Sequence record: LC546831.1
Source of the DNA: a plasmid
DNA: 64,000 nucleotides
Reading direction: 5' to 3' (one strand)
Positions 342-35,790 of this stretch are shown in pieces; the stretch's first letter is position 1, and each line of letters starts with the position of its first letter. The position numbers and the translations under genes were made by a program. The notes under the pieces were generated by a model that was given only the letters and a program-made list of their open reading frames with translations, was not told the DNA's origin and searched no databases.

Positions 342-593
342 CTACATAGGCTAAGTATATGCCGATGCATAGCATATGTATAGGACAAGGATATGCAGAT
401 GGCTGGCATATGGATATGTTTGCCCTATCCTTGCCTTCTTCTTTTTCAGCCAAGATCCGTTTTCTGCTAAAGCCGGATGCTAACTATCTAAGGTGAAGGT
501 GACTATGTGTTTACGCTGGCAGCCAAGCAACCTGAATGGTTTATCGTGATGTGCTCCGGCATACGTAAATCCTACACCGGAGCTAAGGAGTGA

Positions 594-1526
594 TTACTCC
601 TGAAGGTGCAGCTCCTTCAGATTCGTTTCAAAGTAATCAACATAAATTCGCTCATTTTTGGGCTTCATTATCAGCTGAATACCGTTGGGAACGGGCGGAC
701 ATGAGGCCCGGTAGGCGAACATCTCATCCTGGATATTCCGGAGCGTATAACCCAGTTGCTCTTCTTCTGCCCTTCCGGACACCCTGATGCCGGATAATTC
801 CTTCTCAACGTACTTTTTCAGCTTCTCGCTTCTTTTCATACTGCTGCGATTATCCAGAAACTGAAGCAAGAAATAGCGGATGACCGGCAGTGTGAACACC
901 ACATAGAAGAGGATCTCATTCAGCCCGGATTTCATGGAGATGCCGTAAACAAGCATCGCGACAGGCGAGACAATAAAAGCTGAAAGATAAAACACGTGCA
1001 GCACCTTCCTGAGCGATTTGTCCCAGCCGAGGTTTTTTCCGTGGCACAGGAGCGCCATTACGGCCAGCGGCGCGTCATACACCTTACTGACGTACCATCC
1101 CTCTTCGCCAAATCGCTTTCGTGCTTTTTCCGGACTGTCCCTGAAATAGGCAGCTGCCCGGATGATGTCATCCCGTGGGATCTCCTCCACCTTCAGGTCA
1201 TTGCGCCGGATGCCCAGTACCCGGCAGTCGTACATTTCCTGGATTGAGGCTGCCTTCCTGCGCAGTGCCGCGATGTGTCCGCTGATGATAATGTTAAAAG
1301 TAAGCACCAGGAGTCCATACAACCCCAGCAGTGAAGACAGCAGCTCTGAATCGACAAAGCCCCGGCTCCGGTTGTATACGGTAACGAGCGAAAGCAGGAG
1401 CGGCACGATGATGCTGAAGATAAAATTCAGCCTGTTCCAGTTTTTTACCCTGTCGTAAACACGGGCCTGCGCATACAGTAAATCCAGGTTTTCTCTGGTC
1501 GACTGGTTCGTGTAAATGGCATTCAT
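594..1526 (-). CDS. Multi-pass membrane protein (4-5 predicted TM helices). Candidate CBASS S-4TM-type effector
   Basis: Hydrophobic helices FIFSIIVPLLLSLVTVY, LLGLYGLLVLTFNIIISG, VLHVFYLSAFIVSPVAMLVYGI, ILFYVVFTLPVIRYFLLQF. Start is 3 nt downstream of the nucleotidyltransferase gene on the same strand. Confidence 0.45.
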   Translation of the reverse strand: MNAIYTNQSTRENLDLLYAQARVYDRVKNWNRLNFIFSIIVPLLLSLVTVYNRSRGFVDSELLSSLLGLYGLLVLTFNIIISGHIAALRRKAASIQEMYDCRVLGIRRNDLKVEEIPRDDIIRAAAYFRDSPEKARKRFGEEGWYVSKVYDAPLAVMALLCHGKNLGWDKSLRKVLHVFYLSAFIVSPVAMLVYGISMKSGLNEILFYVVFTLPVIRYFLLQFLDNRSSMKRSEKLKKYVEKELSGIRVSGRAEEEQLGYTLRNIQDEMFAYRASCPPVPNGIQLIMKPKNERIYVDYFETNLKELHLQE

Positions 1527-1529
1527 GGT

Positions 1530-2525
1530 TCACCCGTAAACAGGAAATAACGGCCCGAACACATCGCGCCATTTATTGATGGATTTTTCATACTCTTTGT
1601 TCTCCTCAAACCATCTCGCCTCCGATACCTTCTGCGCATCGAGATAACATCTGTCCGAAATCGCCTTACGCGCCTCGGCTGAAAGAGAGTTGATATCTCC
1701 CTGTATGCCTTTGGGATCGTTGACGGAGAACTGTACGTACAGACCGAGATGGCGGAAAAGCGCTTCCAGCTCCATATCGACAAACGATGAGCAGGCTGAC
1801 CTGCCGGCGTAATAGTCCAGAATCAGCGTCTCCAGCAGGTAGGAACTCATGGAGGGCATCGTCGGTCGCCGCTGCCAGTACTTGACTGCTCTGATGACAT
1901 TCAGCACATTGCCGTCATTCTGCACATTGACAGTTGTGACTCTGTCCCTGTCTTTGCGGGGGTCGGTAAACTTCCAGTGGCCTTTGCCGTCGGGGATCAG
2001 ATAGTAAGTCCGTCCAAAGGCATCTTCGCTGGTAATAAAGCAGGGTACGATGTCAAAATTCCAGTCCTTGCTGACCAGTTTCAGCGTGACGGCTTCCTGG
2101 TTACGCCTGATATCAGCTTGGGCGTATTGGGCAATGTCCTGCAGGCGGTTTTTAAAGGCATTCAGAATTCTGACGGAGCAGATAGTGTCAGCTCCGGAAT
2201 GCCGATACCCGTGCAGGCGCGACCCCTCGCCGGAAGAGGTCAGAGTGATCCGGTCACTCAGAACGTTATAGGTGGCACTCTGCGCGGATAAGCCGAACAT
2301 CAGATCGATATCGTCCAGAGGACGGATTTTGGTTCTTCTGGCAAAGGATCCAAAGGCAATATGGATCGCTGGATAACTCACCGGAAATTTATCGTCCTTC
2401 TCAAAATCATTCATCTTACCGATAAGCCAGTCGCGACTTGCACGCGCGTCATCGGTATCTGCCTTTTTGAGATTCACGGTATCTTTCATAAATTCGTTAA
2501 AGGCAGCTATTACTGTGGTCGCCAT
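1530..2525 (-). CDS. Nucleotidyltransferase of the cGAS/DncV-like (CD-NTase/SMODS) type
   Basis: GSFARRTKIRPLDDIDLMF (G-S...D-x-D) followed by a third acidic residue in NFDIVPCF, then KGHWKFTDP. About 330 aa, operonic with a TM protein. Confidence 0.5.
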   Translation of the reverse strand: MATTVIAAFNEFMKDTVNLKKADTDDARASRDWLIGKMNDFEKDDKFPVSYPAIHIAFGSFARRTKIRPLDDIDLMFGLSAQSATYNVLSDRITLTSSGEGSRLHGYRHSGADTICSVRILNAFKNRLQDIAQYAQADIRRNQEAVTLKLVSKDWNFDIVPCFITSEDAFGRTYYLIPDGKGHWKFTDPRKDRDRVTTVNVQNDGNVLNVIRAVKYWQRRPTMPSMSSYLLETLILDYYAGRSACSSFVDMELEALFRHLGLYVQFSVNDPKGIQGDINSLSAEARKAISDRCYLDAQKVSEARWFEENKEYEKSINKWRDVFGPLFPVYG

Positions 2526-3539
2526 GTTCAGTCCTTTAATTATTTATTGCAAAAGGCGCAGGGCTCTGACGTACATCTGCACACTCCAGTGCCCTGAAAG
2601 GGTCGAGACAGTTTATTCTTAGTTCCGCAAGTTCACTACCGTCTCGCTTTCTACAAGGCCTTGTAATTTACATGGGAAATAAGAGCCTCGCTCTTTTATT
2701 GAATTTAATGCAAGTGTTTTCAATTTTTAATGCCAAAAAAGCAATAATGCGATTATGTTTAAAATCAATCATTAGTATTGCATTATCAGCACAAATCCTT
2801 CTGCATTCCTCCTGAGATCCGAAAACTCCCAGAGACGGATCTTCCTGAACTCCTCCGGCGTACAGCTGCACGGAAACACAAGATGTAGCGGTGTTTACAG
2901 CTGATGATGACGCTATATGTTGTGTTCTCCCCCTGCCCCGTGACCCGGCGTGCGGCAGCGGATTTTGGTGCTTTGCTTATTTCCCCGGCGTGGTACACTT
3001 CCGGAAAGTTGTTATATGCCAGAAAGTCGGATCACACAGGAAAGGTGAATAGGTAATTTAATGGCGTGGTTATATGGCTGCTTATTATCATCTGGGTGAT
3101 TTTTACTGTATGGAACTGCGAGGGCGATCATCGTCACTGGCGTGATTGCGGGATGTGATAATTTCAATGGGGGTTTATGTGCAAGTCATGTGATATTGAC
3201 GCTAATTATTTTCACTCGGTTTATTGTGTGTATGACCATCTCGCAACTACTCACCACGTTTTATGGCTGCGCGATTCATCGAGAATTCCAAGCGGTTTGC
3301 TATCGAGGAATCTCCTTTCTTCTGCAGGTGATGTATTGGCCATATGGAATGCCCCTCCAGGAAAAGGATGGGCGCTTCGTATCCACGATAATGAAGCCAT
3401 TGACGAACGGCCAGACCCGCAGCGGGGGGATTTTGTCGATCTCAGTGATGAGGCAACAAGGTTTCAGATTCTTTTAGACCTTGGATGTTGACGTTTATAC
3501 AAGAGCTGGGCGGGATTTTGCACTTAATAAGGAACATAC

Positions 3540-4250
3540 ATGGGTGACTGGTTTATTGCCACCGAGGGCGTGAAAATCGTCAAAGACAGTCCAGGCCTGT
3601 GGCCGCAGATCATTACGGGGTTTGCGGCGTTGGGCGGCGTGTACCTGGCCCACTACTTAACCCGCTGGCGTGAGGAAAGAACGGCGGCGGCGAAGCAGGC
3701 CAGTGAGCGTCTTTTTATCGCCACGGAGCTGGTCTTTTTGCTGGAGCAGTTTGCCGAGGGTTGTGCCCAGGTAGCCACGGACCAGGGCGAGCCCGATCAG
3801 CAAGGTGAGTATTCCCCAGCGGTAAAGGCGCCTGAGCTGACTGTCCTGGATGTTTCGGGGGACTGGCGCACGCTTCCTCCGCTGATCATGTACCGGATTC
3901 GTGAGCTGCCCATACTGCAGAGCGAAGCCCGTCGGGATATTGCTGCAGCTGCAGAGCATAGTTGGGCTCCCTATCACAAAGAAGGTTTTCAGGAGCGTCA
4001 GTACCAGTATGCGCGCCTCGGGCTGAAGGCCCTGCTCCTCTCACGGCGCCTCCGCAAACTGGCCGGTCTGCCCGACACCCGCCTTGATGCGACGGAATGG
4101 TCTGCCCAGCCTGTCCTCTGGAAGGCGTGGCGGGAGGAGCGTAACAGACGTTCGGTTCAGGCAAGGCTGCGGCGGCAAACTATCGCACAGATGAATGTTG
4201 CCCTGCAGCAGAGCATAAAAAATAACAGCCTGTCGGGGAGGACGCCGTGA
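3540..4250 (+). CDS. Hypothetical protein with an N-terminal TM helix. Overlaps the start of the recombinase gene
   Basis: ORF with high-GC codon usage. 4-nt overlap with the downstream recombinase. Confidence 0.5.
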   Translation: MGDWFIATEGVKIVKDSPGLWPQIITGFAALGGVYLAHYLTRWREERTAAAKQASERLFIATELVFLLEQFAEGCAQVATDQGEPDQQGEYSPAVKAPELTVLDVSGDWRTLPPLIMYRIRELPILQSEARRDIAAAAEHSWAPYHKEGFQERQYQYARLGLKALLLSRRLRKLAGLPDTRLDATEWSAQPVLWKAWREERNRRSVQARLRRQTIAQMNVALQQSIKNNSLSGRTP

Positions 4251-5020
4251 ATTTGCCAGCCCAGTATACCCAGCCCCCGGCTTTACAGTTACCAGTGGCG
4301 ATTGATTATCCTGCTGCGCTTGCCCTGCGTCAGATGGCTCTTGTCCATGACGAACTGCCCAAATACCTGCTGGCGCCGGAGATCAGCGCCCTGCTCCACT
4401 ACGTACCGGACTTGCACCGTAAACTGTTGCTGGCCACCCTGTGGAACAGCGGCGCCCGGATCAACGAGGCACTGGCGCTGACGCGCGAGAATTTCTCGCT
4501 GGCGCCGCCCTACCCGTTCGTGCAGCTGGCCACCCTCAAGCAGCGCACGGAAAAGGCGACCCGCAGCGCCGGCCGGTTGCCGGCGGCCAGCACGCCGCCG
4601 CGCGTGGTGCCGCTGTCCGATCCGCAGTACGTGGCGCAGCTGCAGATGATGGTGGCCACGCTGAAAATTCCGCTCGAGCGCCGCAACGCGCGCACCGGCC
4701 GGATGGAAAAGGCGCGGCTGTGGACGATCACCGATCGGACGGTGCGCAGCTGGCTGGCGGAGGCGGTGGACGCCGCGGCGCGCGACGGGGTTACGTTCTC
4801 GGTGCCCGTCACTCCGCACACCTTCCGCCACAGCTACGCGATGCACATGCTGTATGCCGGCATTCCGCTCAAGGTACTGCAGGCGCTGATGGGGCACAAG
4901 TCGATCAGTTCGACGGAGGTCTACACCAAAGTCTTTGCGCTGGATGTGGCAGCGCGGCACCGGGTACAGTTCTCGATGCAGGAGACTGACGCGGTGGCAA
5001 TGCTTAAAGGATTGAACTGA
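4247..5020 (+). CDS. Short tyrosine site-specific recombinase (resolvase-like, ResD/Xer-type, no arm-binding domain)
   Basis: C-terminal HTFRHSYAMHMLYAGIPLKVLQALMGHKSISSTEVYTKV (R-H-R-Y catalytic region). 257 aa. Confidence 0.8.
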   Translation: MNLPAQYTQPPALQLPVAIDYPAALALRQMALVHDELPKYLLAPEISALLHYVPDLHRKLLLATLWNSGARINEALALTRENFSLAPPYPFVQLATLKQRTEKATRSAGRLPAASTPPRVVPLSDPQYVAQLQMMVATLKIPLERRNARTGRMEKARLWTITDRTVRSWLAEAVDAAARDGVTFSVPVTPHTFRHSYAMHMLYAGIPLKVLQALMGHKSISSTEVYTKVFALDVAARHRVQFSMQETDAVAMLKGLN

Positions 5021-5837: not shown

Positions 5838-5958
5838 TCCTCCATATTTTTAAATATCTTTATTGATATTTGATTTATTGTGAGCTATATTCTCTGTACT
5901 GATAGTGGAAAGCCACTATCGACTCTCTGGCGCAAAGCCATACTCAAAGGAGAATGTC

Positions 5959-6300
5959 ATGCAACACAATGCACTCGTTGGTCGACTGATCACTCAGCCT
6001 GTCTTTGTAGTCAAAGACGACACACGGTTCTGCCGTTTCACCGTAGCTGAACTGAGAAAACGCAGTGGTAACCAAACCAAAATCGAATTCACCGCTTTTG
6101 ATGCCGTAGCCTCGCATATTGCCGATAAGTGCCTGGTCGGCGATACCGTTTCCATCAATTTCACCATCACCAATGCTGTCTATGAGTCGGATGGTGTTAA
6201 TCATCATGGCTATCGGTTTCAGGCGACGTTGGTTGAATTCGTTGCCGCCGGCAAACAGCGCCGTGAGCAAGTGAGTCAACGTATTGGACAAGGTCGTTAA
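5959..6300 (+). CDS. SSB-like OB-fold single-stranded DNA-binding protein (short plasmid type). Start taken at MQHNAL, which has an AAGGAG RBS
   Basis: VGRLITQPVFVVKDDTRFCRFTVAE...EFTAFDAVASHIADKCLVGDTVSINFTI...HGYRFQATLVEF mirrors the SSB OB-fold pattern (VGNLG.DPE.R....G..V..F.LA...). Confidence 0.5.
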   Translation: MQHNALVGRLITQPVFVVKDDTRFCRFTVAELRKRSGNQTKIEFTAFDAVASHIADKCLVGDTVSINFTITNAVYESDGVNHHGYRFQATLVEFVAAGKQRREQVSQRIGQGR

Positions 6301-6307
6301 CTTCCCG

Positions 6308-6323
6308 GTTTCGCATGCGAAAC
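6308..6323. promoter_or_regulatory. Operator-like palindrome copy 5 (perfect)
   Basis: Direct read. Confidence 0.65.
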
Positions 6324-6349
6324 TGACCTAACTACCAGAGGTCGAGTTT

Positions 6350-6616
6350 ATGTCGATTTATATGGAATTACGCTGCGAACTCCGAGGGGAGTTACCAATT
6401 AACGAGTCAAAATGTTGGTCAGAAGTTGACCGCAGCCTGTGGGCAATGGCATTAAACACCCATGAGTCTACAGAACAGACCACAACAGAACTTTTAAGCA
6501 AGGCCACCCATGCCGGTTGGCAAAGTATTAATGGTGATTGGATATGCCCTGGCTGCCAAGAAAATCTGGCATTAACAGAGCAGATGCAGGCAGTCGCCGA
6601 AAGGCATGACCAATAA
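6350..6616 (+). CDS. Hypothetical 88-aa protein with a CxxC pair (CPGC)
   Basis: ORF behind the palindrome. Confidence 0.4.
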   Translation: MSIYMELRCELRGELPINESKCWSEVDRSLWAMALNTHESTEQTTTELLSKATHAGWQSINGDWICPGCQENLALTEQMQAVAERHDQ

Positions 6617-6624
6617 CAGTCTTA

Positions 6625-6640
6625 GTTTCGCATGCGAAAC
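6625..6640. promoter_or_regulatory. Operator-like palindrome copy 6 (perfect), 20 nt upstream of the parA ATG
   Basis: Direct read. Confidence 0.65.
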
Positions 6641-6660
6641 TTTTGAAGAGGATTTCTAAG

Positions 6661-7503
6661 ATGACAGCGAAAGTAATCACGATTTGTTCACAAAAAGGTG
6701 GCATCGGTAAGACCTTTGCCACAACGGAAATAGCGGCAGAGCTGCAGCGTCGCAGCTATCGGACATGTGCAGTTGATGGGGATTGGATGAGCGCGCTGAC
6801 GTCGCGCCAATTCCCCGATGGCCTGCCGCTGGAAATCGATGCCAATCCTTCAGGGCGCGTTCTTACGCCGGGCACCGCACACGTCAATCGCATCTATGGG
6901 GAAGAACCCTTTGAGCCGCTGCGGCTGCATGATGGCCGTGGATTTATGGGGGCGACGGAACAGCTGAACGATATCAACAACCGCAACTCCGATTGTATCT
7001 ACGATTTCCGCGCCCGCTTCGCGGAGCTGCGCGACCAATTTGACTATATCCTGATTGACTCGTCGCCAGTCTGGTCAAACTTGCTGATGGCCAATCACCT
7101 GGTCGCCGATTATCTGTTGATCCCAACGCTGTTGGAAAAAACATCCCGCCTCGGCGCCGAAAAACACCTGCGCACGTTGAAGAAAATCAAGGAGCGGTAT
7201 AACCCAGACCTCAAACTGCTGGGGATCGTGGTTACTCAGGCGACGGTGGCCAACTATAAGAAAGAAGTGCTGGGTGGTCGTTATGCGAGTGTCGATACCG
7301 AGAATCTCAAGATGTTGCTGGAGATCCTGGAAGAGAATGGTTTCGGGCCGGAGCATTTGCTGGAGATTATTCCCTATGTTCAAACCAAGGTCCGTGAAGC
7401 CATTGAGTTGAACTACACCATGAAAGAATACGCGCCGGACAGCCCATTGGTGGCTCGTTATGACGCGCTGGTTGACACTATCATTGCACGGACAGGGGGC
7501 TGA
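6661..7503 (+). CDS. parA: ParA/Soj-family partition ATPase
   Basis: Deviant Walker A CSQKGGIGKT. About 280 aa. Followed by a ParB gene. Confidence 0.85.
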   Translation: MTAKVITICSQKGGIGKTFATTEIAAELQRRSYRTCAVDGDWMSALTSRQFPDGLPLEIDANPSGRVLTPGTAHVNRIYGEEPFEPLRLHDGRGFMGATEQLNDINNRNSDCIYDFRARFAELRDQFDYILIDSSPVWSNLLMANHLVADYLLIPTLLEKTSRLGAEKHLRTLKKIKERYNPDLKLLGIVVTQATVANYKKEVLGGRYASVDTENLKMLLEILEENGFGPEHLLEIIPYVQTKVREAIELNYTMKEYAPDSPLVARYDALVDTIIARTGG

Positions 7504-7507
7504 CACG

Positions 7508-8644
7508 ATGGCCAAAAATTTCAAAGCCCAAATGCGTGAAAAGCGCGAAAAGGCCGCTTCACCGCAAACGCAGGTTGAAACTCCCGCAGTCGAACGCGAA
7601 CTGGCGTTACCGCGTAATGACCTGAACCAGAACGAGCTGAAGGTCAACCGGGCTGAGCACGAGGACCCTGCGGGTCAGATAATTCGTGTTCCAATCGATG
7701 ATGTCTACGCTATTGACCAGGTTCGCCCCGAAGACGACTTTGATGATGAAGTTATCGACGGGATGAAACAAACCTACGGCGACTTCGGCATTTTATCACC
7801 TCCTCGTTGTTTCCCCCGCGATAAGCGCGGATATCGCATTTGGTTGGGTGAAACGCGAGTGCGTTCTGCAAAGAAAAAAGGGGATTTGTTCATCGACATT
7901 TATGTCGGCCTGCCGCCTGAAAATGAGAAGAAGCGCATCTATGGGCAGCTGATCGAAAATCTTCACCAGTCTGGGTTAAAACCGTTAGCCACAGCAATAC
8001 AGCTGCAGGCACTTCGCGATGTGCATGGTGAAACTCAGGAGTCGATGTCTCGTATTTTGGGTAAACCCAAAACGTTCATCAGTAAACACATGCGGTTGAT
8101 TGATGCGCCGGCGCCGGTCATCGCTCTGCTGAAAGAAAAGGTGACCAAAGATGTCGACCTGGTCTATACGCTGTGCCAAATCAACGATATCAGTCCAGAG
8201 AGCGTTGATAAACTGGCCAAACTGGTTCGGGATGGGAAGCTCACGCGCCAGGGAGCGATTAAAGAGCTGAACGTCCTGAAGGGCAAGCCGCCAAAGAACC
8301 CGCCGCCTCCGGCGCCATCAACCAACTCCGGGACAGAAACTCAGGAAGAGAACCGTAACAAAGATGTATTGACGGAACATCCGGGAACTTCGACGAATCA
8401 AACCGGCAACACCGCCGGCGAACAGCAGAATGCCGGCAACGAACAGACCCATAAGACGCAACCGCTACAGGGCGAGTCTAACGTCAAAATCACTCGTGTC
8501 ATGGTGAAGTTTGAGGGGGGGGAAGGCTATTTGCTGACTGACCGGATACCCGAGGAATATGGCCAGGTTTGGATAGCGCTGCCGTTAGGTGAACTGTGCA
8601 TCGATGCCGCAGAAATATCTATCCTGGGGATCAAAGAGGTATAG
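7508..8644 (+). CDS. parB: ParB-family partition/DNA-binding protein
   Basis: ParB N-terminal domain with GETRVRSA (GxxRxxA). HTH SMSRILGKPKTFISKHMRLID. Downstream of parA. Confidence 0.8.
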   Translation: MAKNFKAQMREKREKAASPQTQVETPAVERELALPRNDLNQNELKVNRAEHEDPAGQIIRVPIDDVYAIDQVRPEDDFDDEVIDGMKQTYGDFGILSPPRCFPRDKRGYRIWLGETRVRSAKKKGDLFIDIYVGLPPENEKKRIYGQLIENLHQSGLKPLATAIQLQALRDVHGETQESMSRILGKPKTFISKHMRLIDAPAPVIALLKEKVTKDVDLVYTLCQINDISPESVDKLAKLVRDGKLTRQGAIKELNVLKGKPPKNPPPPAPSTNSGTETQEENRNKDVLTEHPGTSTNQTGNTAGEQQNAGNEQTHKTQPLQGESNVKITRVMVKFEGGEGYLLTDRIPEEYGQVWIALPLGELCIDAAEISILGIKEV

Positions 8645-9082
8645 ATGAGTAAAGCGCTGTTTGCAGACCTGGCGGAGCAGTTTTTATCCGTCGCAGTCAA
8701 AACCTGGGTGATACGTTCAGAATTACCGGCCGCTGCTGCGGCCGATGTTTTGCTTACCACTGCAATCCAGCAGGGCTTCCTGGAAGACCGTGGACGCCCT
8801 TTATTGGGTAATACACTCAATGAGTGGGGGAAGAACAAGAAATACCCGCGATGGGCCATACAGAGCGCTATGGCTCTCCTTTTGGCTGATGGGTGGAAAC
8901 CCGTCACCCATCCTGAATGGGCTGCCTATGCGGCTATACACGTTCAGTCTAAAAAGGGGGGATCGCTCACCCAACTCCTCGATGTTTTGCCGGAAGGGCT
9001 GGACATTGATGTGGCGGCAGGTTGGATCTGCGCGGCGACGGAAGACGCTGCCAGATATCATGATAGGAAAAAGCTGCGATGA
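8645..9082 (+). CDS. Hypothetical protein (145 aa)
   Basis: ORF contiguous with parB. Confidence 0.4.
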   Translation: MSKALFADLAEQFLSVAVKTWVIRSELPAAAAADVLLTTAIQQGFLEDRGRPLLGNTLNEWGKNKKYPRWAIQSAMALLLADGWKPVTHPEWAAYAAIHVQSKKGGSLTQLLDVLPEGLDIDVAAGWICAATEDAARYHDRKKLR

Positions 9083-9399
9083 CGTTTTCTGATATTGAGG
9101 CCGCACTGTCCAGTACCGGGCGGCGTGCTTACGCCGGCGTCATTTTAGCTTTCCTGCTTGATGCTCACGATCGTGGTGCTGGTCTGGTCGAGAAGCACAC
9201 TGTGGTGGAGAATGTCGGGATCACCGACACCAATGTTTCGGCGGTGGCGCGGCGCCTGGAGGAACAAGGGATAATCGAGATCCTCTACTGGGATACAAAA
9301 TCCGAGAGTCCCACATGGTCCAGCCTACGGAACGGTGCTTGGTCAGCCCCCGGATATCGTCTGCTGCCAGCTGTACTGCAGTTGTATCGTCGTTGCTGA
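9079..9399 (+). CDS. Small winged-helix-like DNA-binding protein (106 aa)
   Basis: NVGITDTNVSAVARRLEEQGII resembles a wHTH. 4-nt overlap with the upstream ORF. Confidence 0.4.
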   Translation: MTFSDIEAALSSTGRRAYAGVILAFLLDAHDRGAGLVEKHTVVENVGITDTNVSAVARRLEEQGIIEILYWDTKSESPTWSSLRNGAWSAPGYRLLPAVLQLYRRC

Positions 9400-9407
9400 A
9401 TGACAAG

Positions 9408-9423
9408 GTTTCGCATGCGAAAC
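9408..9423. promoter_or_regulatory. Operator-like palindrome copy 7 (perfect)
   Basis: Direct read. Confidence 0.65.
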
Positions 9424-9457
9424 TCACCTGAGGACACAGATACGTAAAGGAACCCGT

Positions 9458-10786
9458 ATGAAACTGGTAACGAAGAAATCACCCAGAGGTCGACTGTTCG
9501 ATGAGTTATCGCCTGAACAGGCGACGGCGGTAGGCAACGTTTGTGGCAAAGGACGCGTTACTTCGCTGGTTGAAAAACAGTTGGCTGAAGAGGTGCTGAG
9601 AAGCATGCGTGATAATGATCTTTGGCTGTCTTGCGGTTGCCGCACGACTGCAGAAGATCGGCCACTTAACACCGTCTGTAACCGCGACGGATCTTTGTTC
9701 CTGGTGAATTTCAGCGGAGAGCACAGCTCGGATTGTCCGCTGTATCGTTCAAAGCGGGGTGATGATGGCACAGGGCAGGGCGGCGGGCGCCGAACAGCCG
9801 GCGCCGTGCGCATTGATTTTCGCTCTTTCTTGCCGCGAGACGATAATGGGGCTCGTATCGCTGGGCCGGCGAAGACAAACAGTCATGGCAAAGACAAAAC
9901 AAGTCGGCGCCGTATACCCGCGTTGGCACGCCTGCTGCTGACCTTGATCGAGGCCGCTGGGCTTAATCGCATCGAACCGGTTTACCCTCAGCCAGGACAA
10001 ACCAAAACGCAGGCGCTCAATGCGGTGAAGTTGGTTACCGAGATGGAGCACTTTGCCCAGGGTCGTCCTCTGAGCGAGATTGTATTCTTCGACCCCTGGC
10101 TGAAACAAGAACGGCTCGATGCGCGCATGCGTGAACTTGAAAACGAGGGTAAAGCCTGGCCTGCAGGGAGAGCACGAACTTTCTACCAGATCCTGTTCTC
10201 TGAGCAGGTGACACAAGATGAGGTCGTTTTCAAAAGTAAGTTCGGTGAGACAATATTCCGGCCCGAAAAGCGAGTGAGCATCAACGGCGAGGTTGATGGT
10301 CATCGGGAGAAATACTGGGTGATCCTGATGTACCGGCGCAATGATGCTGGTACGGTCGTTTGCCGCGATGCTTATGCGCATGCGCTCTTTGATTACGCCT
10401 GCCCGGTTCCGGTCGACAGTAACCTTGAACGTGAAACCATTAACTCCATCATTACTGGGGGGAAGTGGCTGCAGAGTTCAGGCTATGAGTTATCCCTTAA
10501 CAAACCGCTGTTCGATATCACTGTGGACCTTGATGGCGAGGAGCGTTTTGTTTTGCCTGACTTCCTTTTGACTGTCAAACACCCTGGGCGGGTGCGAACG
10601 TCGGAGCTTGTTATCGAGACGATGGGGTATACTGATGATGACTACGTCGAACGCAAAGCGAATCAGCATAAGGGTATGAGGGAATTGGGGTTGTTGCTGA
10701 AAGATCCCCCTTATTGGCCGGCACCGGCCGATAAGCGTGATGCATTTGCACGGTATTTGTATGGGCGAATTTCGCACTTAAAATAG
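9458..10786 (+). CDS. Conserved hypothetical protein (442 aa)
   Basis: Long ORF with an RBS, behind palindrome copy 7. Confidence 0.5.
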   Translation: MKLVTKKSPRGRLFDELSPEQATAVGNVCGKGRVTSLVEKQLAEEVLRSMRDNDLWLSCGCRTTAEDRPLNTVCNRDGSLFLVNFSGEHSSDCPLYRSKRGDDGTGQGGGRRTAGAVRIDFRSFLPRDDNGARIAGPAKTNSHGKDKTSRRRIPALARLLLTLIEAAGLNRIEPVYPQPGQTKTQALNAVKLVTEMEHFAQGRPLSEIVFFDPWLKQERLDARMRELENEGKAWPAGRARTFYQILFSEQVTQDEVVFKSKFGETIFRPEKRVSINGEVDGHREKYWVILMYRRNDAGTVVCRDAYAHALFDYACPVPVDSNLERETINSIITGGKWLQSSGYELSLNKPLFDITVDLDGEERFVLPDFLLTVKHPGRVRTSELVIETMGYTDDDYVERKANQHKGMRELGLLLKDPPYWPAPADKRDAFARYLYGRISHLK

Positions 10787-10813
10787 AAATTAATATTTAA
10801 ATAAGGATATCGA

Positions 10814-11245
10814 ATGATGAAAAAGCTATCGGAAAAAATGCTTGATTTTGCATTGGCACGGCCATACATGTGTTTAACTCTCAGCATAGTGTTTTTATTT
10901 TTGTGTGCTGCCAAAGGGGTAGAGTATATGGTTAATGGAAGACATTTAACACCATTGCTAATATCCATTTTGGCATGTGCAATTGGTGGGCTATTTTTCG
11001 TTTACTTTTATATGCGCCATACTTTAGCAATGAGTAGAACTTATAACTTTTTGTTAAATAATAGGAATTCTATTGCGGAGGGAGTTGCGGTGGACCACCT
11101 AAGGGCATTGGCAAAGAGTCATGCTGTTGAGAAAGAATTCGATGATTATTTTTCGTCGAAGAAACACCCTCAAAAAATTGAAGTTTTCGTGAATAAGATA
11201 AGCGAATTCGCCATGAAAAAACTCAAAGATAATTCACGTTCTTGA
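10814..11245 (+). CDS. Membrane protein on a low-GC insert (143 aa)
   Basis: Two hydrophobic helices. Local GC clearly lower than the flanks. Confidence 0.45.
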   Translation: MMKKLSEKMLDFALARPYMCLTLSIVFLFLCAAKGVEYMVNGRHLTPLLISILACAIGGLFFVYFYMRHTLAMSRTYNFLLNNRNSIAEGVAVDHLRALAKSHAVEKEFDDYFSSKKHPQKIEVFVNKISEFAMKKLKDNSRS

Positions 11246-11341
11246 TATGCACCAAAATGCTACATGTCTCTTTTTAGAGACATTGCAGATATTAACGAAC
11301 GCTTTATGATGACGCGAACAACCTTACTTTGAGGCCTTCGT

Positions 11342-11545
11342 ATGAATCATTACCCCGCTGAATATGCAGAAAATATCAATGCCCTGAAAAACGGGCAGGG
11401 CGTTGTTCGAATCGAATCATGGATGCCCGACGAGGTTATTGGGAAACTCATCCGCCGAAAACTGGAACAGGCGGAGGGCGCCGATATTACGGTGACGTAT
11501 ACGGTGATCACGGATGAAATGCAGCAGGCGGCCCACAATTTCTGA
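11342..11545 (+). CDS. Hypothetical small protein (67 aa)
   Basis: ORF with an upstream RBS-like sequence. Confidence 0.35.
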   Translation: MNHYPAEYAENINALKNGQGVVRIESWMPDEVIGKLIRRKLEQAEGADITVTYTVITDEMQQAAHNF

Positions 11546-11859
11546 CCACTCTCCTCTGAATAAGGCCGTCGCTGCGCTCCGCTCTTTTCTGATTCCGCCT
11601 GGCGGCGGCCACCTCCCGAACACCGTCATATCCCTATAGCGGGCCTGCAGCCCGATGACATCTTGCCATACCCCGGCCTTGGCGGGGCGACGGCATGCCG
11701 TCTTCAAGCGGCTTTCGCGGCATATCCTTGCCGCGCGCGGCGGCGGTATTCCACGTCCGCTTGACCCGCGGCGGTGCCTGGCCGCGCTGACATCGGGCCG
11801 CAGGGAACGGGTGCCGCACCGGCACCCTCCTGCCGTCCCTTGTCAGACGAGGAACGCTT

Positions 11860-12504
11860 ATGTCCCGCTATGTGTTGGGTGACTCCGTACAAGTCATGTC
11901 TTCTTTCCCTGCCGGCAGTATCGACTTTATTCTGACCGATCCTCCATACCTGGTTGGTTTTACCGATCGCTCCGGGCGCTCGATCGCCAACGATACGAAC
12001 CCTGACTGGGTGCTGCCGGCGAGCCGGGAAATGTTTCGGGTGCTCAAACCCAATAGCCTGATGGTGAGCTTCTATGGTTGGAACCGCATCGATGCCTTTG
12101 TCGGCGCCTGGAAGGCCGCTGGCTTCCGTATCGTTGGCCACCTGGTGTTTACCAAGCAATATGCCTCGAAATCCGCGTTTGTCGGCTATCAACACGAGAG
12201 CGCTTATATCCTGGCGAAAGGTAGGCCGGCACTGCCGGCACAACCTCTCGCTGATGTGCAGAGTTGGCAATATACCGGCAACCGCCACCACCCGACCGAG
12301 AAACCCGTTTCCAGCCTGCGACCGCTGATCGAGTCCTTTACCCAGCCTGGCGCCATTGTTCTCGATCCGTTCGCCGGCTCCGGTTCGACCTGCGTCGCCG
12401 CTGCCTTGTCCGGGCGCCGCTATATTGGCATCGAGCTGTTACCTGACTACCACGCTACGGGCTGTCGTCGCCTGGCTGCGCTGCGCGGCCGGCGCGCGGC
12501 ATAA
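11860..12504 (+). CDS. Orphan beta-class DNA N6-adenine/N4-cytosine methyltransferase
   Basis: Motif IV ILTDPPYL near the N-terminus and motif I FAGSGSTCVAA near the C-terminus. No adjacent restriction gene. Confidence 0.75.
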   Translation: MSRYVLGDSVQVMSSFPAGSIDFILTDPPYLVGFTDRSGRSIANDTNPDWVLPASREMFRVLKPNSLMVSFYGWNRIDAFVGAWKAAGFRIVGHLVFTKQYASKSAFVGYQHESAYILAKGRPALPAQPLADVQSWQYTGNRHHPTEKPVSSLRPLIESFTQPGAIVLDPFAGSGSTCVAAALSGRRYIGIELLPDYHATGCRRLAALRGRRAA

Positions 12505-12518
12505 GGGGAGGGATACCG

Positions 12519-12740
12519 ATGAACTATCAGGGCCATGAGAAATTACGCGCCGACGTGGCGGCGCTGTCAAACGACATGTGGGAGCTGCATTTGCGATTGA
12601 GGGAACTGGTCAGCACGCATTTCTGGAACAGCGATGTATTGGCCGATCGTCTGGCCGGCCACATTCTGCGTGATGCGCACGATCGCTTCCTTGAGGTCTG
12701 CAAAGCTGTCAACGAACTGGATCACCATTTCAGGGAATAG
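12519..12740 (+). CDS. Hypothetical small protein (73 aa)
   Basis: ORF directly after the MTase. Confidence 0.35.
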   Translation: MNYQGHEKLRADVAALSNDMWELHLRLRELVSTHFWNSDVLADRLAGHILRDAHDRFLEVCKAVNELDHHFRE

Positions 12741-13161
12741 TGGAAAGCAATACCGGGCGGGCAAGGGAGCCTGCCCGGATCACCAGGCGGTATCACGGTC
12801 GGCCGCCGCAGCGTATCGAACGCCGCCCGACCGTGATACCGCCACGCGGCAATTGCCGGCGTCGCCGGCGCCGCAAAGGGCGCAGGCTGGGCCTGCCTAC
12901 ACCTCTCTAAATCCACTTCCTCTGCCGCTGCTGCGTAGTGACGGCCTGTGCCGTCCCCAAACGCTAGTCCGGCTCGGTTGTGTTCAAGCGCCGCGGTGCT
13001 CGCCGTCGGCACCCGTTCGCACCCGTTACGGGCATTCAGCCGCGCAACGGGCTTGCGCTGCGGCTTTGACGGCGCCCTTGACCACTGCCCTCAAGGCCGG
13101 CCTTTCGAATGGGTACGGCACCGGCCGGTGTCGCAAACCCTGAAACTGTGGAGGTAGTCCC

Positions 13162-13587
13162 ATGCAACATGCTCATTCCGTCAACCTGCAGGTGTGTGAA
13201 GCCGATCGTCTGTCATTCCTGCCGTACCTGTTCGACGGCGATTTCCTGCGCGCTGAAATGCAAATTTACGCCACCGCCGATCGCTACTTGTCGGGTTACA
13301 ACGGTGGGTTCTGGCATTTCATCCGCCTGCCGAATGGCGGCGGGTATATGGCGCCGGATATTGATCAGGTGACGTTGAGCAATGCCGATAACTGGTTCGA
13401 AAAAACCATCAGCGGCGATGCCGCCGGCATTATCTTGACGTCGCTGGTCATTAACCGCCGCTGCTGGTTCCATCACGACCGCGGCAATGCCGGCATGGTG
13501 CAAATGTATATCCAGCGGGAAGACCAGTTGAAAACCTACATCGATACGCACCCGGAACGGGCTGATATCTGGCGCGCCCTGGACTGA
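13162..13587 (+). CDS. KlcA/ArdB-family antirestriction protein
   Basis: RLSFLPYLFDGDFLRAE...YNGGFWHFIRLPNGGGYMAPD matches my recollection of ArdB/KlcA conserved blocks. About 140 aa. Confidence 0.65.
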   Translation: MQHAHSVNLQVCEADRLSFLPYLFDGDFLRAEMQIYATADRYLSGYNGGFWHFIRLPNGGGYMAPDIDQVTLSNADNWFEKTISGDAAGIILTSLVINRRCWFHHDRGNAGMVQMYIQREDQLKTYIDTHPERADIWRALD

Positions 13588-13589
13588 CT

Positions 13590-13618
13590 GAAGGCGGCGG
13601 GTCTGTTTGCCCCGCCTT
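13590..13618 (+). terminator. Putative rho-independent terminator
   Basis: GGCGGCGGG...CCCGCC stem followed by TTG/A. Confidence 0.4.
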
Positions 13619-14184
13619 GAACAACAACACAGAAACCCGAGGTTGCCCATGAAACTGGATGAAGAAACCCAAAAACGTCTGCGTCGATACCAGGCGATCA
13701 TCAATGAAGACCGTCTGCAATATGGATTATCCCCGCTGACATTACCGCAAGTGGTCGCCGCCGTTTTTGAATATCTGGCAGATCAGCCGTGCATCTTCTT
13801 GCGCGGGGTGTTTATTCGACAGTAATGCTGGACTTGCCGTGTAGCCTTACATCAGTGGGGCTACCTGACGCCGCGGGAAAAACCCTGTCACCTGCGGTGA
13901 CTGGCAGAAGAGAGCGGCGGCGATGCCGCCGCCTCCAGCTGCCAACAATGACTGCATACCCGTGCTGCAGCAGTGAGGCATCTACCGAGGTAAGAAAGAT
14001 TGATGAAGGGTATCCACTATGAAAAGGAACACGTCTTCCGGTTATAAAAGGAATAACTGCTTGTTTATAAGAACAGTGTTTGGAAAGTAGTGGGTGGCCA
14101 CCCTTCTATTGCCATAACACATCACATTATCGGGATAGTTGGACAAAGGGGGGAGAGGGGAAAAAAACGAGGGCTTGGGGCAAT

Positions 14185-14430
14185 GGCCGGTCGAATGACC
14201 GTCCAGCAGACCTACTCAACCAAGACGCCCGTATGCGGGCGTCAGGTTTCGCCGAACCCGCACGCGGTTTCGGCCTGTCGGTTAGGGTCTCCAAGCCAAC
14301 GGCAACACCCGCGCTTGCTGCCGGCGTCGCCGGCGCCGCTTTCACTGCTCGTCGTTCGGACGACGAGCGCTAAGGTCGCCCCAGCGTTCGCTGCCGCGCC
14401 CGCTGTGTCGGGTTGATCCGTGTTCAACCT
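14185..14430 (+). repeat. Structured leading-region repeat, partial copy 1. Homologous only to the 5-prime half of copies 2-4
   Basis: GTCCAGC..CCTACTC..CGCCGAAC..GGTTTCGG..TAGGGTCT..AAGCCA..CGCTTGC.GCCGGC..GCCGGCGCC.CTTTCACTG.TCG..CGCTAAGG.CGCCCC aligns with copy 2. Confidence 0.5.
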
Positions 14431-14660
14431 TCCAGAGTGCTTTAGCCGCAGTAAGTCTTCCCGCCGCAACTGATAACAGCACAACGCCTCGCTTAAACAC
14501 CAAGGGGTGTATGAACTCCGCCAAAAACTTTTTCCTCCCTTCGGTCAAAAAAACTTTTTGTCTCCGCCCCTTGGTGCCGCTCTTCGCCGTGCTGAATCAG
14601 TTTATTGCGACGGCGAATACTCACAGCGGCATCAGTTATCACCCCACGGAGGATTTCAAC

Positions 14661-14954
14661 ATGGCTCAACAAAACGTCAAAGGCGCGACATCGAAGCCTA
14701 CAGCAGCATCAGCACTTAAAAACGGCGGTCGTTCTGACCTGCAGGTGTATGAGCTGTTTCTCGCTGTGCAGCGCGCCTGCGGTGGCCGTTCAACCGGCAC
14801 GAGTGAGCCGCCGTCCGTACCGGCTGATGCCGAGTATCTGGTCATCGATCAGGGGGAGTTTGACTCTCTGGCCGTTTGGCTGGTCGAGGGGGTTCCGGTC
14901 GCCGCCAGCGATGAAATGAACCTGACGCACTGGGTGATCAGCGCAGGGCAGTAA
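14661..14954 (+). CDS. Hypothetical protein (98 aa), N-terminus MAQQNVKGAT
   Basis: RBS GGAGG before the ATG. First gene after repeat copy 1. Confidence 0.5.
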   Translation: MAQQNVKGATSKPTAASALKNGGRSDLQVYELFLAVQRACGGRSTGTSEPPSVPADAEYLVIDQGEFDSLAVWLVEGVPVAASDEMNLTHWVISAGQ

Positions 14955-15039
14955 AAAGCAGGGTTGCCCCTGCTCCTAACCGCCGGTCTGGACGCCAATC
15001 TGACCGGTTTGACAGTAATAACTATTGGAGAGAAATCAC

Positions 15040-17118
15040 ATGTCTGACATCGATACTAAAGCACCTGCAAAACCAAAATCAACCGCCAAGAAAAGCCCGG
15101 CCAAGGCTGCATCAGCCAAAACCGCAGCGGCGAAGTTTGTTGAAGCTGCGCTGGACAAGGCTGAGCGTAAAAATCTCATGCTCAAAGAGATCACCTTTAC
15201 TGATCAGAATGCGCGTATTACCCCTCGCACTCAGGACGAGATCGAGGAGATGGCAACCAGTATCGAGGCCACAGGCCTGTTGCAGAACCTCGTCGTACAC
15301 CGCATGGCGGATGGTCGATACGGTGCGGCTGCCGGTGAGACCCGCCGCCTTGGTATGGATTTGTTGATGGTGCAAGGGCGTTCAGCTGCTGGCGTACCGG
15401 TAACGCCGGAGTTTATCGTCCCTGTTTTAGTCGTCGATGAGCAGGACGCCTATGCGATTTCTGTTGCGGAGAACGTGCGCCGCACCAATCTGCAACCTGC
15501 CGATCAGCTCGAAAATATGCGTAAGCTGGCTGAGAACGGAACCCCGGCCGAACAGATCGCTGCCATCCTCGGCTTCAGCACCCTGCATGTTAAAAAATGC
15601 CTTAAGTTGACAACCGTAGCCCCTGCGCTGCTGGAGCTGCTGAAAACGAATCAAATCAATTTTGACCAGCTGGCGGCGCTGGGTGCGACGGATGATCATC
15701 TGCGCCAGATTCAGGCATGGGATAAAGGTAAATATGACGACCACTTCCGCACACCAAAGGCGTTACGAAAAATAGTGCTGGCCGACGAGGTTTCGGCCGC
15801 AGACAGCCAGTTGGTTAACTTTGTTGGGATTGATGCCTATCAAGCAGCAGGCGGTGAGATCCGCGAGGAGATGTTCGTTGACGATGTCATTCTAACCGAC
15901 CCATTGAAGCTGGAAACGCTGGCGATCGCCAAGCTGCAAGCGGTGGCGGATGATGTGGCGAAAAATGAAGGGTGGGCATGGGCTGTTGGCCGTACTCGTG
16001 AGGCGCAACGTTATACCGACGATGAGAAGACATTCGTAGTCCCTTGGGTAACCACGAGGCTGACCAGCGAGCAGCAGGCAGAAATGGATCAGCTGCTCGC
16101 TGAGCAAGAATTGCTGGATGACATGTTTGATACTGCTGAACTCGATGCAGACGATGAATGGGAACATGCGCCACGCGTTGAGCAGATTGAGACGCGTATC
16201 AACGAAATAAACGCAGCTGCAGAACTCAACAACTGGCCGTCAGAAGTTCGTGCGACGGCAGGCATAATCGCTTATCTGAAAGATGGCCAGATCCAAATCC
16301 AACGTGGCTTGATGAAAGTGGAGGACATCAAGCAACAAGAGAAAGCCAACCGCGAAGAAATCAAGAAGAACACCCCACCGTCAGAAAAGGGGCTGTCCCA
16401 AGTCTTGGTGAGCAGTTTATCCGCCGAACGCACTTTAGCCGTGTCAGCGGCGCTGGCGCAGAACACCAACGTCGCGATTGCACTCCATACGTTCACGCTG
16501 GCGCGGCGGGTGTTCGACGCGGGATATTTCTATGTGTTGCACACCTCTGTAGAAAGCATGCGCAGCGGCTGCTTATCCCAGTCAGAAGAGGCTGGTAGCG
16601 CGAGTGGCATCGCCAACCTGAAACTGAACGAGATGCATGAGAGCTGGCTGAACCAATTCCCGGATAATTGGAGCGAAAGTTTTGAGTGGCTGCTGGCGTG
16701 GCCACAGGGTGACGTTCTCGGGTTATTGGCATACTGCGTTTCCCACGGCCTCGATGGCCGAGACAGTTATCTCAAGGATAAGCGGGTTGGCACCAAGCTG
16801 GATTCGGTAGAAAAAGCCCTCGATTTCCAGATCGGGGAATGGTGGAAACCGACTGCCGCGAACTTCTTCTCACGGATCGGCAAAGACCAAATCGTGGACG
16901 CCCTCAATAGCGCCGGTGAAATCGGGAAGGCAAAAGATGCCGAGGGTATGAAACGTAAAGAAGCCGCCGAATTCGCCGCTGCGGTGTTGAGCGAAACAGG
17001 TTGGTTGCCGAGCTGCATGGCACCGCAGCCGCAGGCCGAATCGGAAAGCCGGGCTGATGCCACTGCCAGTGCCACGAACGCCAACGATACTGACGCTGAC
17101 GACAGCGCTGCCGCCTAA
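15040..17118 (+). CDS. Large ParB-like nuclease domain protein of F-plasmid leading regions
   Basis: N-terminal ParB/Srx block LLQNLVVHRMADGRYGAAAGETRRLGMDLL. About 690 aa with an acidic tail. Located upstream of psiB as in F. Confidence 0.75.
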   Translation: MSDIDTKAPAKPKSTAKKSPAKAASAKTAAAKFVEAALDKAERKNLMLKEITFTDQNARITPRTQDEIEEMATSIEATGLLQNLVVHRMADGRYGAAAGETRRLGMDLLMVQGRSAAGVPVTPEFIVPVLVVDEQDAYAISVAENVRRTNLQPADQLENMRKLAENGTPAEQIAAILGFSTLHVKKCLKLTTVAPALLELLKTNQINFDQLAALGATDDHLRQIQAWDKGKYDDHFRTPKALRKIVLADEVSAADSQLVNFVGIDAYQAAGGEIREEMFVDDVILTDPLKLETLAIAKLQAVADDVAKNEGWAWAVGRTREAQRYTDDEKTFVVPWVTTRLTSEQQAEMDQLLAEQELLDDMFDTAELDADDEWEHAPRVEQIETRINEINAAAELNNWPSEVRATAGIIAYLKDGQIQIQRGLMKVEDIKQQEKANREEIKKNTPPSEKGLSQVLVSSLSAERTLAVSAALAQNTNVAIALHTFTLARRVFDAGYFYVLHTSVESMRSGCLSQSEEAGSASGIANLKLNEMHESWLNQFPDNWSESFEWLLAWPQGDVLGLLAYCVSHGLDGRDSYLKDKRVGTKLDSVEKALDFQIGEWWKPTAANFFSRIGKDQIVDALNSAGEIGKAKDAEGMKRKEAAEFAAAVLSETGWLPSCMAPQPQAESESRADATASATNANDTDADDSAAA

Positions 17119-34557: not shown

Positions 34558-34953
34558 ATGAAAAATCAAAAATCAAAATCAGAACATGAATATCCGGCGA
34601 TCCGCATAACCATAGATATATCGTCGGACACGAACAGAAAGCTCTCCTTATCCGCCAAACGGTCAGGTAGAGCTAAACGTCAGGAAGCGGGGATACGCCT
34701 ATCCGACCACTTGGATAGCTTCATTGATATCTCGACTGACGCAATACAGCTTTCTAAGCTTCAACTGGAACCTGACGCTGAATATCCAGCGATTAGTATA
34801 ACTGTCGATATATCGTCTGAAACAAACAGAAAACTCTCTTTATCGGCCAAGCGATGGGGTAGAGCGAAACGTCAAGAGGCGGTAATACGGTTAGATCATC
34901 ATTTAGATATCATTACAGATATTGCTACGGAGGGTAAAAGATTTCTGAGGTAA
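34558..34953 (+). CDS. traY: TraY (tandem ribbon-helix-helix oriT-binding protein)
   Basis: 131 aa with an internal tandem repeat EYPAIRITIDISSDTNRKLSLSAKRSGRAKRQEAGIRL / EYPAISITVDISSETNRKLSLSAKRWGRAKRQEAVIRL. Sits just upstream of traA. Confidence 0.75.
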   Translation: MKNQKSKSEHEYPAIRITIDISSDTNRKLSLSAKRSGRAKRQEAGIRLSDHLDSFIDISTDAIQLSKLQLEPDAEYPAISITVDISSETNRKLSLSAKRWGRAKRQEAVIRLDHHLDIITDIATEGKRFLR

Positions 34954-35052
34954 CAACGCCAACACCAGGGGAACTACTAATCATAATTTATTAACTTCGA
35001 TGCAATTGAAAGGAGGTGAATACACAAGAAAGTTCGTGAATATCAGTTCTAT

Positions 35053-35466
35053 ATGCAAAACACACGTTTTCTGAATGTTAATTTCAAAAGGATATATGCA
35101 ATGAATGCTTCATTAAGCGCTCAGGGTTCTGCTATTGCCCAACGCCAGGGAATCTCACTAAGCAAGATGTTCTCACGTCAACGAGTGGTGAATTTCCTCA
35201 AACTGGTTCTGCCTTTTGCTGTGCTGACCGCGTTGTTCCCGCAACTGGCCCTGGCAGCCGGGGCTTCCGGTGACTTGCTTAAAACGGGTGACGATACCGT
35301 TAAGCAGACAGCCGGCAGCGGCTCCACCATGTACAAGTGGATCATCCTCGGTGAGGTCGTGACCGGGCTGTGCCTCTATGTCTTCACGCACAGCTTCAAG
35401 TTCCTGTTCGGCTTCATCATCCTGTCCATCATCGGCAACGTCGGCATGAAGGTCGCCGGCTACTGA
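35053..35466 (+). CDS. traA: F-type propilin TraA
   Basis: C-terminal mature region AGASGDLLKTGDDTVKQT...KWIILGEVVTGLCLYVFTHSFKFLFGFIILSIIGNVGMKVAGY matches F pilin. Confidence 0.85.
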   Translation: MQNTRFLNVNFKRIYAMNASLSAQGSAIAQRQGISLSKMFSRQRVVNFLKLVLPFAVLTALFPQLALAAGASGDLLKTGDDTVKQTAGSGSTMYKWIILGEVVTGLCLYVFTHSFKFLFGFIILSIIGNVGMKVAGY

Positions 35467-35475
35467 GGAGGCATT

Positions 35476-35781
35476 ATGTCGGGAGACGATATCAATCTTT
35501 ACCGTTTCCCGAAAACACTGAACAACCAGGGCCGCTGGTTTGGTTTAACCCCTGACGAATTAATTCCCATTGTGCTTTCTGCCTGCTGGTTCTTTTGGCA
35601 GGGCAAACAGATTGCGGGAATTATCGTGGCGGCTCTGGTTTATCTGGCAATACGCAAGGTTAAAAAAGGGAAGGGCAGCGTCTGGTTGCGCGATTTGGCG
35701 TACTGGTATCTGCCCACCTTTATGTTGCGTGACCTTTATAAAAAAGTGCCGCCTTCGTGTTTTCGGCAATGGATTAAATAG
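35476..35781 (+). CDS. traL: TraL
   Basis: YRFPKTLNNQGRWFGLTPDELIP...WLRDLAYWYLPTFMLRDLYKKVPPSCFRQWIK aligns with F TraL. Confidence 0.9.
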   Translation: MSGDDINLYRFPKTLNNQGRWFGLTPDELIPIVLSACWFFWQGKQIAGIIVAALVYLAIRKVKKGKGSVWLRDLAYWYLPTFMLRDLYKKVPPSCFRQWIK

Positions 35782-35790
35782 GGTGAGGGA

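Follow-up and report, generated by a model that had tools for sequence, protein, structure and literature searches.

Two Adjacent Plasmid Genes Encode a Cyclase and a Membrane Effector

A stretch of 64,000 nucleotides from the plasmid sequence record LC546831.1 (hereafter the window) carries at positions 594 to 2525 two minus-strand genes, which an earlier note, made from the sequence alone, had read as a candidate minimal type I CBASS, an antiphage signaling system based on cyclic oligonucleotides. The first gene (1530..2525, minus strand) encodes a CD-NTase, a nucleotidyltransferase resembling cGAS and DncV, of 331 amino acids (aa), referred to as the cyclase in the following, and the second one (594..1526, minus strand) encodes an S-4TM effector of 310 aa. 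According to the list of open reading frames (ORFs), both genes start with ATG and are intact, with the coordinates, the lengths, and the 3-nt spacing that had been described before. On the coding strand, the cyclase gene ends with ...GTTTACGGGTGA, whereby the TGA stop codon occupies positions 1532-1530, and is followed by a gap of three nucleotides (ACC) and the effector start ATGAATGCC with its ATG at 1526. A Shine–Dalgarno sequence (AAGGA) is located 7 nt ahead of the cyclase ATG. In comparison with the Escherichia coli copy, the ratio of nonsynonymous to synonymous substitution rates (dN/dS) amounts to 0.13 in the cyclase gene and to 0.11 in the effector gene; thus, both genes are under purifying selection.

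The cyclase matches the PADLOC model Cyclase PDLC00802 over its entire length (E 8.9e-150, residues 1-331 of 331) and the Pfam family SMODS with 53 bits (cut-off 26.5, E 5.7e-14). PADLOC returned 31 matches for this protein, and 25 of 25 among the matches listed were CBASS cyclase models. All of the motifs on which the earlier note had based its assignment are present in the 331-aa protein, namely GSFARRT (residues 59-65), DDIDLMF (71-77), NFDIVP (156-161), and KGHWKFTDP (181-189). In an alignment of 41 homologues, which is nearly without indels, the active-site residues G59, S60, D72, D74, and D158 are invariant, and likewise W184, T187, D188, and P189 of the KGHWKFTDP block. No transmembrane (TM) segments were detected in the cyclase by hydropathy, and the protein consists of a single domain with neither an AGS-C fusion nor a long disordered insert. 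The AlphaFold2 model, which was built on the 41 homologues, has a mean predicted local distance difference test score (pLDDT) of 87.9 and a predicted template modeling score (pTM) of 0.81, without any segment under pLDDT 50. A Foldseek comparison of this model to the PDB ranked CdnD from Pseudomonas aeruginosa (PaCdnD) first (1.6e-16), followed by E. coli CdnC, Enterobacter cloacae and Salmonella CdnD, insect cGLR, human cGAS, MiD51, and DncV. The expected CD-NTase fold was thereby recovered, with clade D enzymes as its nearest relatives. By sequence, the best solved structures were PaCdnD 6P82 (1.7e-15) and BcCdnD 9SA5 (1e-9), and then E. cloacae CdnD; these enzymes have been placed in clade D, and BcCdnD produces cyclic triadenylate (cA3) (PMC13424991). 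The closest matches by sequence and by fold, together with the name CdnD12 given to the related operon of E. coli SLK172 (see below), suggest that the cyclase is clade D-like and might fall into subclade CdnD12 of clade D in the sense of Whiteley et al. 2019.

PaCdnD (6P82/6P8J) and BcCdnD (9SA4/9SA5) share with the cyclase the GS/DxD/D layout of the active site as well as a C-terminal W-R-x-x-F-G-x-x-F-P motif that aligns with the window protein, but they are merely ~22% identical to it. They also belong to systems of a different organization, i.e., type III (HORMA/TRIP13, NucC) and type II (Cap2/Cap3, Cap4) systems with nuclease effectors, whereas the window system lacks ancillary genes and its effector is a membrane protein.

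The effector gave a match to the PADLOC model Effector 4TM PDLC00717 (E 3e-164, residues 1-307) and to the Pfam family S_4TM (159.8 bits, cut-off 26.9, E 1.3e-46). Both families that the earlier note had named, SMODS/CD-NTase and S-4TM, were thus recognized by profile searches, with full-length PADLOC matches to a CBASS cyclase and a 4TM effector. Of the four to five TM helices that had been proposed for the effector, four were found by hydropathy (residues 30-53, 61-88, 174-198, and 205-224) and a fifth was not; these four would form two helical TM hairpins. The AlphaFold2 model (pLDDT 81.2) is all-helical and consists of four long helices of 44-49 residues each, which contain the TM segments and reach well past the membrane, plus short cytoplasmic helices. 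Residues 1-29, 89-173, and 225-310 are predicted to be cytoplasmic by the positive-inside rule, such that all larger soluble parts of the protein are predicted on the cytoplasmic side from hydropathy and K/R distribution. Other CBASS membrane effectors, reportedly described by Duncan-Lowey et al. in 2021, are the 2TM-SAVED protein Cap14 and the TM beta-barrel protein Cap15, which are presumed to disrupt the inner membrane upon binding of the nucleotide signal. In contrast to these, the S-4TM protein has neither a SAVED nor a beta-barrel sensor domain; its model is entirely helical, and no significant relative of it was found among the solved structures.

The Cyclase and the 4TM Gene Form a Conserved Two-Gene System

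The cyclase belongs to a family of 2476 database proteins (E<=1e-5) of uniform length, whose identity still amounts to ~50% for members from Clostridia, Bacteroidota, Cyanobacteria, and Ignavibacteria. Pairing was assessed in a sample of 80 loci from GTDB species genomes. An effector homologue was present in 74 of the 80 loci and was located directly downstream of the cyclase gene on the same strand in 71, which agrees with the pairing of cyclase and S-4TM effector that had been claimed. The order of cyclase followed by 4TM gene spans Proteobacteria, Firmicutes, Bacteroidota, Cyanobacteria, and other phyla; in Clostridium botulinum, for example, SMODS and S_4TM genes follow each other between integrase genes. 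Divergence is much faster in the effector (median phmmer E 3e-18 in the GTDB loci) than in the cyclase, and only 58 word-indexed matches were obtained for the effector. In five loci with enough downstream sequence (L024, L029, L042, L043, and L044), a detectable 4TM homologue is missing; these loci may carry a swapped effector.

Within the window, neither Cap2/Cap3 (E1-E2/JAB) nor HORMA/TRIP13 or other ancillary cap genes were found near the two genes, and therefore the locus represents a type I, two-gene system, as the designation "minimal type I" had implied. PADLOC likewise identified no CBASS accessory proteins in the vicinity; the neighbors within the window are a phage-defense candidate (PDC-S67) and a tyrosine recombinase on the upstream side and, on the downstream side, vapBC, which follows the effector gene after 250 nt of intergenic sequence. 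Overall, the locus combines a SMODS cyclase of cGAS-like fold, an intact G-S...D-x-D...D site, and an adjacent, co-oriented gene of a recognized Cap effector class.

The Locus Is Nearly Identical to a Plasmid Cassette of E. coli SLK172

Type I CBASS operons have been screened in E. coli by Richmond-Buccola et al. of the Kranzusch laboratory (bioRxiv 10.1101/2023.05.21.541620; Cell Host Microbe 2024). In that work, the EcCdnD12-4TM operon from E. coli SLK172, cloned alone, restricted phages from five families by at least 10,000-fold in a cyclase-dependent manner, and phage escape mutations mapped to prohead protease/scaffold and capsid genes (bioRxiv 10.1101/2023.05.21.541620). Plasmid pSLK172-2 (NZ_CP017633) encodes at 34759-36690 the proteins WP_000246635.1 and WP_000991830.1, to which the window cyclase and the window effector are 94% (310/331) and 96% (297/310) identical, respectively. 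The two loci agree in their two-gene architecture, the 3-nt junction, and the protein lengths of 331 and 310 aa, and they differ by 21 amino-acid substitutions in the cyclase and 13 in the effector. On both plasmids the cassette adjoins the same pair of genes, which encode a hypothetical (PDC-S67-like) protein and an integrase (recombinase), and lies near vapB, but pSLK172-2 has three extra genes between the 4TM gene and vapB. The plasmid backbones differ as well, the window being Serratia F-like and pSLK172-2 an E. coli F33/IncI1 hybrid. In the literature, no paper mentions the accession WP_000246635, and nothing relevant was found there on the S-4TM (Cap13) effector. An apparent occurrence of "CdnD12" in an E2-CBASS preprint turned out to be a false match, consisting of EcCdnD and the reference superscript 12.

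The Cassette Is Widespread on Conjugative Plasmids

The cassette matches 998 plasmids in PLSDB, and in 805 cases the match covers 80% or more of the query; 751 of the plasmids are conjugative, and the carriers are mainly Escherichia, Salmonella, and Klebsiella. Among 5426 complete E. coli genomes it occurs in 672, with 680 of the 690 places on plasmids, and none was found in the records of the phage collection. RefSeq names the two proteins "SMODS domain-containing nucleotidyltransferase" and "S-4TM family putative pore-forming effector." The best long matches of the window are Serratia marcescens plasmids, and the nearest species genome is S. bockelmannii S3 (99%). The earlier note had called the plasmid conjugative, and this is borne out by the region at 34-62 kb, where a tra block is found along with TraX and a TraI relaxase of 1766 aa; pSMBC31-93K, the closest plasmid relative examined in detail, is typed MOBF/MPF_F. 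Also the described position beside vapBC holds, as a vapB antitoxin gene with a Pfam MazE/AbrB match is located at 78-341 on the minus strand and is followed by a gene for a VapC-like PIN toxin (VNKTYMLDTNICSF...), whose initial 27 codons lie inside the window before the window start truncates it.

Homology to other plasmid copies starts at ~436-467 and ends at ~2829-2839 (in E. coli at 3088). These limits of ~436-2835 suggest that ~2.4 kb move as a unit, including the 5′ region of the cyclase gene. On the 3′ side, the unit comprises a conserved flank between the effector stop and vapB (436..593, minus strand), which is shared with Serratia, E. coli, Phytobacter, and other copies. The 5′ region (2526..2835, minus strand) travels with the cassette, as judged from the homology limits and an alignment of seven copies, and is the presumed location of the promoter. 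Its segment 2526-2800 is AT-rich, as the earlier note had stated, with a GC content of 37.5% compared to 51% for the two CBASS genes and 54% for the window. The ~125 nt just before the ATG are near-invariant among the enterobacterial copies in the seven-copy alignment, and this leader is kept even where the sequence farther upstream is unrelated, as in Pectobacterium. Folding placed a hairpin at 2559-2596, with a possible CCUUU/AAAGG pairing over the Shine–Dalgarno sequence, and an inverted repeat, ATAATGCGAT/ATTGCATTAT, is present at 2744-2786. A structured RNA in the leader was considered but rejected as an established feature, since Rfam gave no match, the fold reached a z-score of only -2.4, substitutions among the copies break stem pairs without compensation, and distant homologues do not share the leader.

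Proposed Function as a Type I CBASS

Taken together, we consider it highly probable that the cassette is a functional type I CBASS abortive-infection system of the CdnD-4TM kind, which resides as a mobile unit with a size of ~2.4 kb on a conjugative, F-like plasmid of the Serratia type. This interpretation builds on the integrity of both genes, their close translational coupling, their family membership, the intact catalytic site, the conserved pairing, the purifying selection, and the near-identity to the SLK172 cassette. In the proposed mechanism, the cyclase would be held inactive in uninfected cells and would be switched on late in phage infection, whereby the trigger might, by analogy to the near-identical EcCdnD12, be a cue linked to prohead/scaffold assembly. 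The active site formed by G59-S60, D72-x-D74, and D158 would then produce a cyclic oligonucleotide; because the closest characterized relatives PaCdnD and BcCdnD make cA3, a trinucleotide is the best guess for the product. We infer that the 4TM protein binds this signal with its cytoplasmic helical parts and would subsequently disrupt the inner membrane, and that the cell would stop growing or die ahead of the release of phage progeny.

Many CD-NTases are activated by phage prohead proteases that cut a disordered loop of ~30 residues (Hobbs and Kranzusch, 2026 preprint, PMC12991175). Within clade D, only ~18% were found to have such activation loops, and those clade D enzymes without a loop did not respond to the protease (PMC12991175). 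These protease-tripwire CD-NTases (EcCdnG, DncV, and E. cloacae CdnD) resemble the reported behavior of EcCdnD12 in that late-infection sensing is tied to the prohead protease, but they carry the loop as a surface-exposed disordered segment, whereas the window cyclase model has no segment under pLDDT 50. A tripwire loop was looked for in the window cyclase and dismissed, as no disordered insert is predicted. The lack of a predicted insert, the nearly indel-free family alignment, and the unresponsiveness of loop-less clade D enzymes together favor a non-proteolytic trigger for the cyclase, which we propose with modest confidence. It is possible, though on balance doubtful, that the cyclase directly recognizes the assembling prohead/scaffold without being cleaved, that the cytoplasmic helical extensions of the 4TM protein, a receptor fold for which no solved relative was found, read the signal, and, as a separate matter, that the leader and the inverted repeat control the expression of this plasmid-borne CBASS in an undescribed way.

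Several observations weigh against the assignment as a functional CBASS. The cyclase scored 113.8 and 58.7 bits against the NCBIfam models CBASS_cyclase_a and CBASS_cyclase_b, which is under their 200-bit cut-off; these equivalogs model other cyclase subfamilies, and CBASS membership is unaffected by this result. For the effector model, the PDB contains no significant fold relative (best Foldseek E 0.25, TM-score <=0.25), and "pore-forming" therefore stays a family label and not a demonstrated mechanism. A simple scan of the minus strand in region 2526-2800 found no consensus sigma-70 promoter, such that, of the AT-rich promoter region described in the earlier note, the base composition stands and the promoter is plausible. 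In vitro nucleotide synthesis with EcCdnD12 gave no detectable product (bioRxiv 10.1101/2023.05.21.541620). Moreover, the phage-restriction data belong to the SLK172 operon as tested in E. coli; the tested EcCdnD12-4TM operon is very likely the pSLK172-2 locus, as judged from strain name and architecture.

The G-S...D-x-D motif is common to all pol-beta-fold nucleotidyltransferases, and taken by itself it would also fit a non-CBASS enzyme of this fold, i.e., an antibiotic nucleotidyltransferase or an AbiEii/MNT toxin, next to an unrelated membrane protein. However, the Pfam search at E<=1 matched SMODS alone and none of the AbiEii/MNT, NTP_transf_2, or antibiotic nucleotidyltransferase families, and the listed PADLOC matches are all CBASS cyclases. 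Among the top 50 Foldseek matches of the cyclase model, which consist of CD-NTases, cGAS/cGLRs, and MiD51, neither an antibiotic nucleotidyltransferase nor an MNT/AbiEii protein occurs. Such an origin, which the earlier note had named as an outcome that would speak against its own proposal, would furthermore not account for an S_4TM partner downstream in 71 of 80 related loci, and we regard it as hardly conceivable. It might also be that only a remnant of the cassette persists in this plasmid, decaying or silent, with ORFs that look intact but are unexpressed or non-functional. The missing sigma-70 consensus would fit with this, as would truncated copies of both genes in the databases and neighboring genes annotated as pseudogenes in several RefSeq records. 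Yet both ORFs are full length and contain all invariant family residues, the dN/dS values are low (0.11-0.13), the 300 nt upstream are conserved within the cassette, and a good Shine–Dalgarno sequence precedes the cyclase gene, which makes a remnant very unlikely.

A different role would be plasmid maintenance or competition, with the cassette acting mainly as an addiction-like toxic module or in the exclusion of rival mobile elements. Its position in the stability region between vapBC and a tyrosine recombinase, where related plasmids hold toxin-antitoxin and candidate defense genes, would be in line with such a role, and so would its overwhelmingly plasmid-borne occurrence in E. coli and its absence from the phage collection. 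But plasmid defense genes commonly sit in such variable regions, the same two-gene module is found on chromosomes and integrative elements in other phyla, and no antitoxin-like labile component is evident. Since, in addition, the SLK172 operon cloned alone gave strong cyclase-dependent phage restriction, we judge a main role in maintenance or competition to be unlikely, if somewhat less so than a silent remnant.

As a type I CBASS, the cassette is already known: it is widespread, it is annotated in RefSeq, and a near-identical relative is present in the strain whose operon was tested. Because it is one of the CBASS operons found most often on plasmids of Enterobacterales, and because of this SLK172 relative, it represents nothing new in kind. 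Its occurrence here means that a Serratia-type conjugative plasmid would carry a broad-spectrum abortive-infection system as cargo, which is of relevance for phage therapy and for the persistence of such plasmids. The remaining interest lies in questions that concern the CdnD12-4TM family as a whole, namely the nucleotide product, the activation of a cyclase without a loop, and the way in which the 4TM protein perceives the signal and harms the membrane.

Genes Surrounding the Cassette

Downstream of the 4TM gene lies a hotspot of variation, as seen from the loci L001 (1-8000), L002 (1-8000), and L086 (36988-41250). In E. coli plasmids it contains two hypothetical genes and an AAA ATPase gene before vapB, and in the Serratia plasmid pSMBC31-93K genes for a hypothetical protein, a KAP-family NTPase, and a RES NAD+ phosphorylase; in the window, vapB follows straight after the 4TM gene. 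On the other side of the cassette, the ~700 bp at 2840-3540, up to the PDC-S67-like gene, contain no ORF with a family match, including a 104-aa ORF at 3177-3491 without Pfam or PADLOC match, and show no more than patchy similarity to S. bockelmannii and E. coli plasmids. The gene at 3540-4250 (plus strand) encodes a 236-aa protein with an N-terminal hydrophobic segment, which matches the PADLOC phage-defense candidate PDC-S67 (E 7e-47). Its stop codon overlaps the start of a tyrosine recombinase gene (4247-5020, plus strand; Pfam Phage_integrase), whose DNA at 4289-5008 is 79% identical to the integrase region of pMS15047A. The two genes have a GC content of 62%, compared to 51% for the CBASS genes, and the corresponding pair of hypothetical protein and integrase genes flanks the CBASS cassette on pSLK172-2 at the same relative position.

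Farther along, positions 5905-17118 (plus strand) carry plasmid partition and leading-region-type genes. These comprise a weak SSB-like ORF (5905-6300), ParA (6643-7503), ParB/KorB (7460-8644), an orphan type II N6/N4 DNA methyltransferase (11860-12504), and a ParB-N protein of 697 aa (15025-17118), all encoded on the plus strand.

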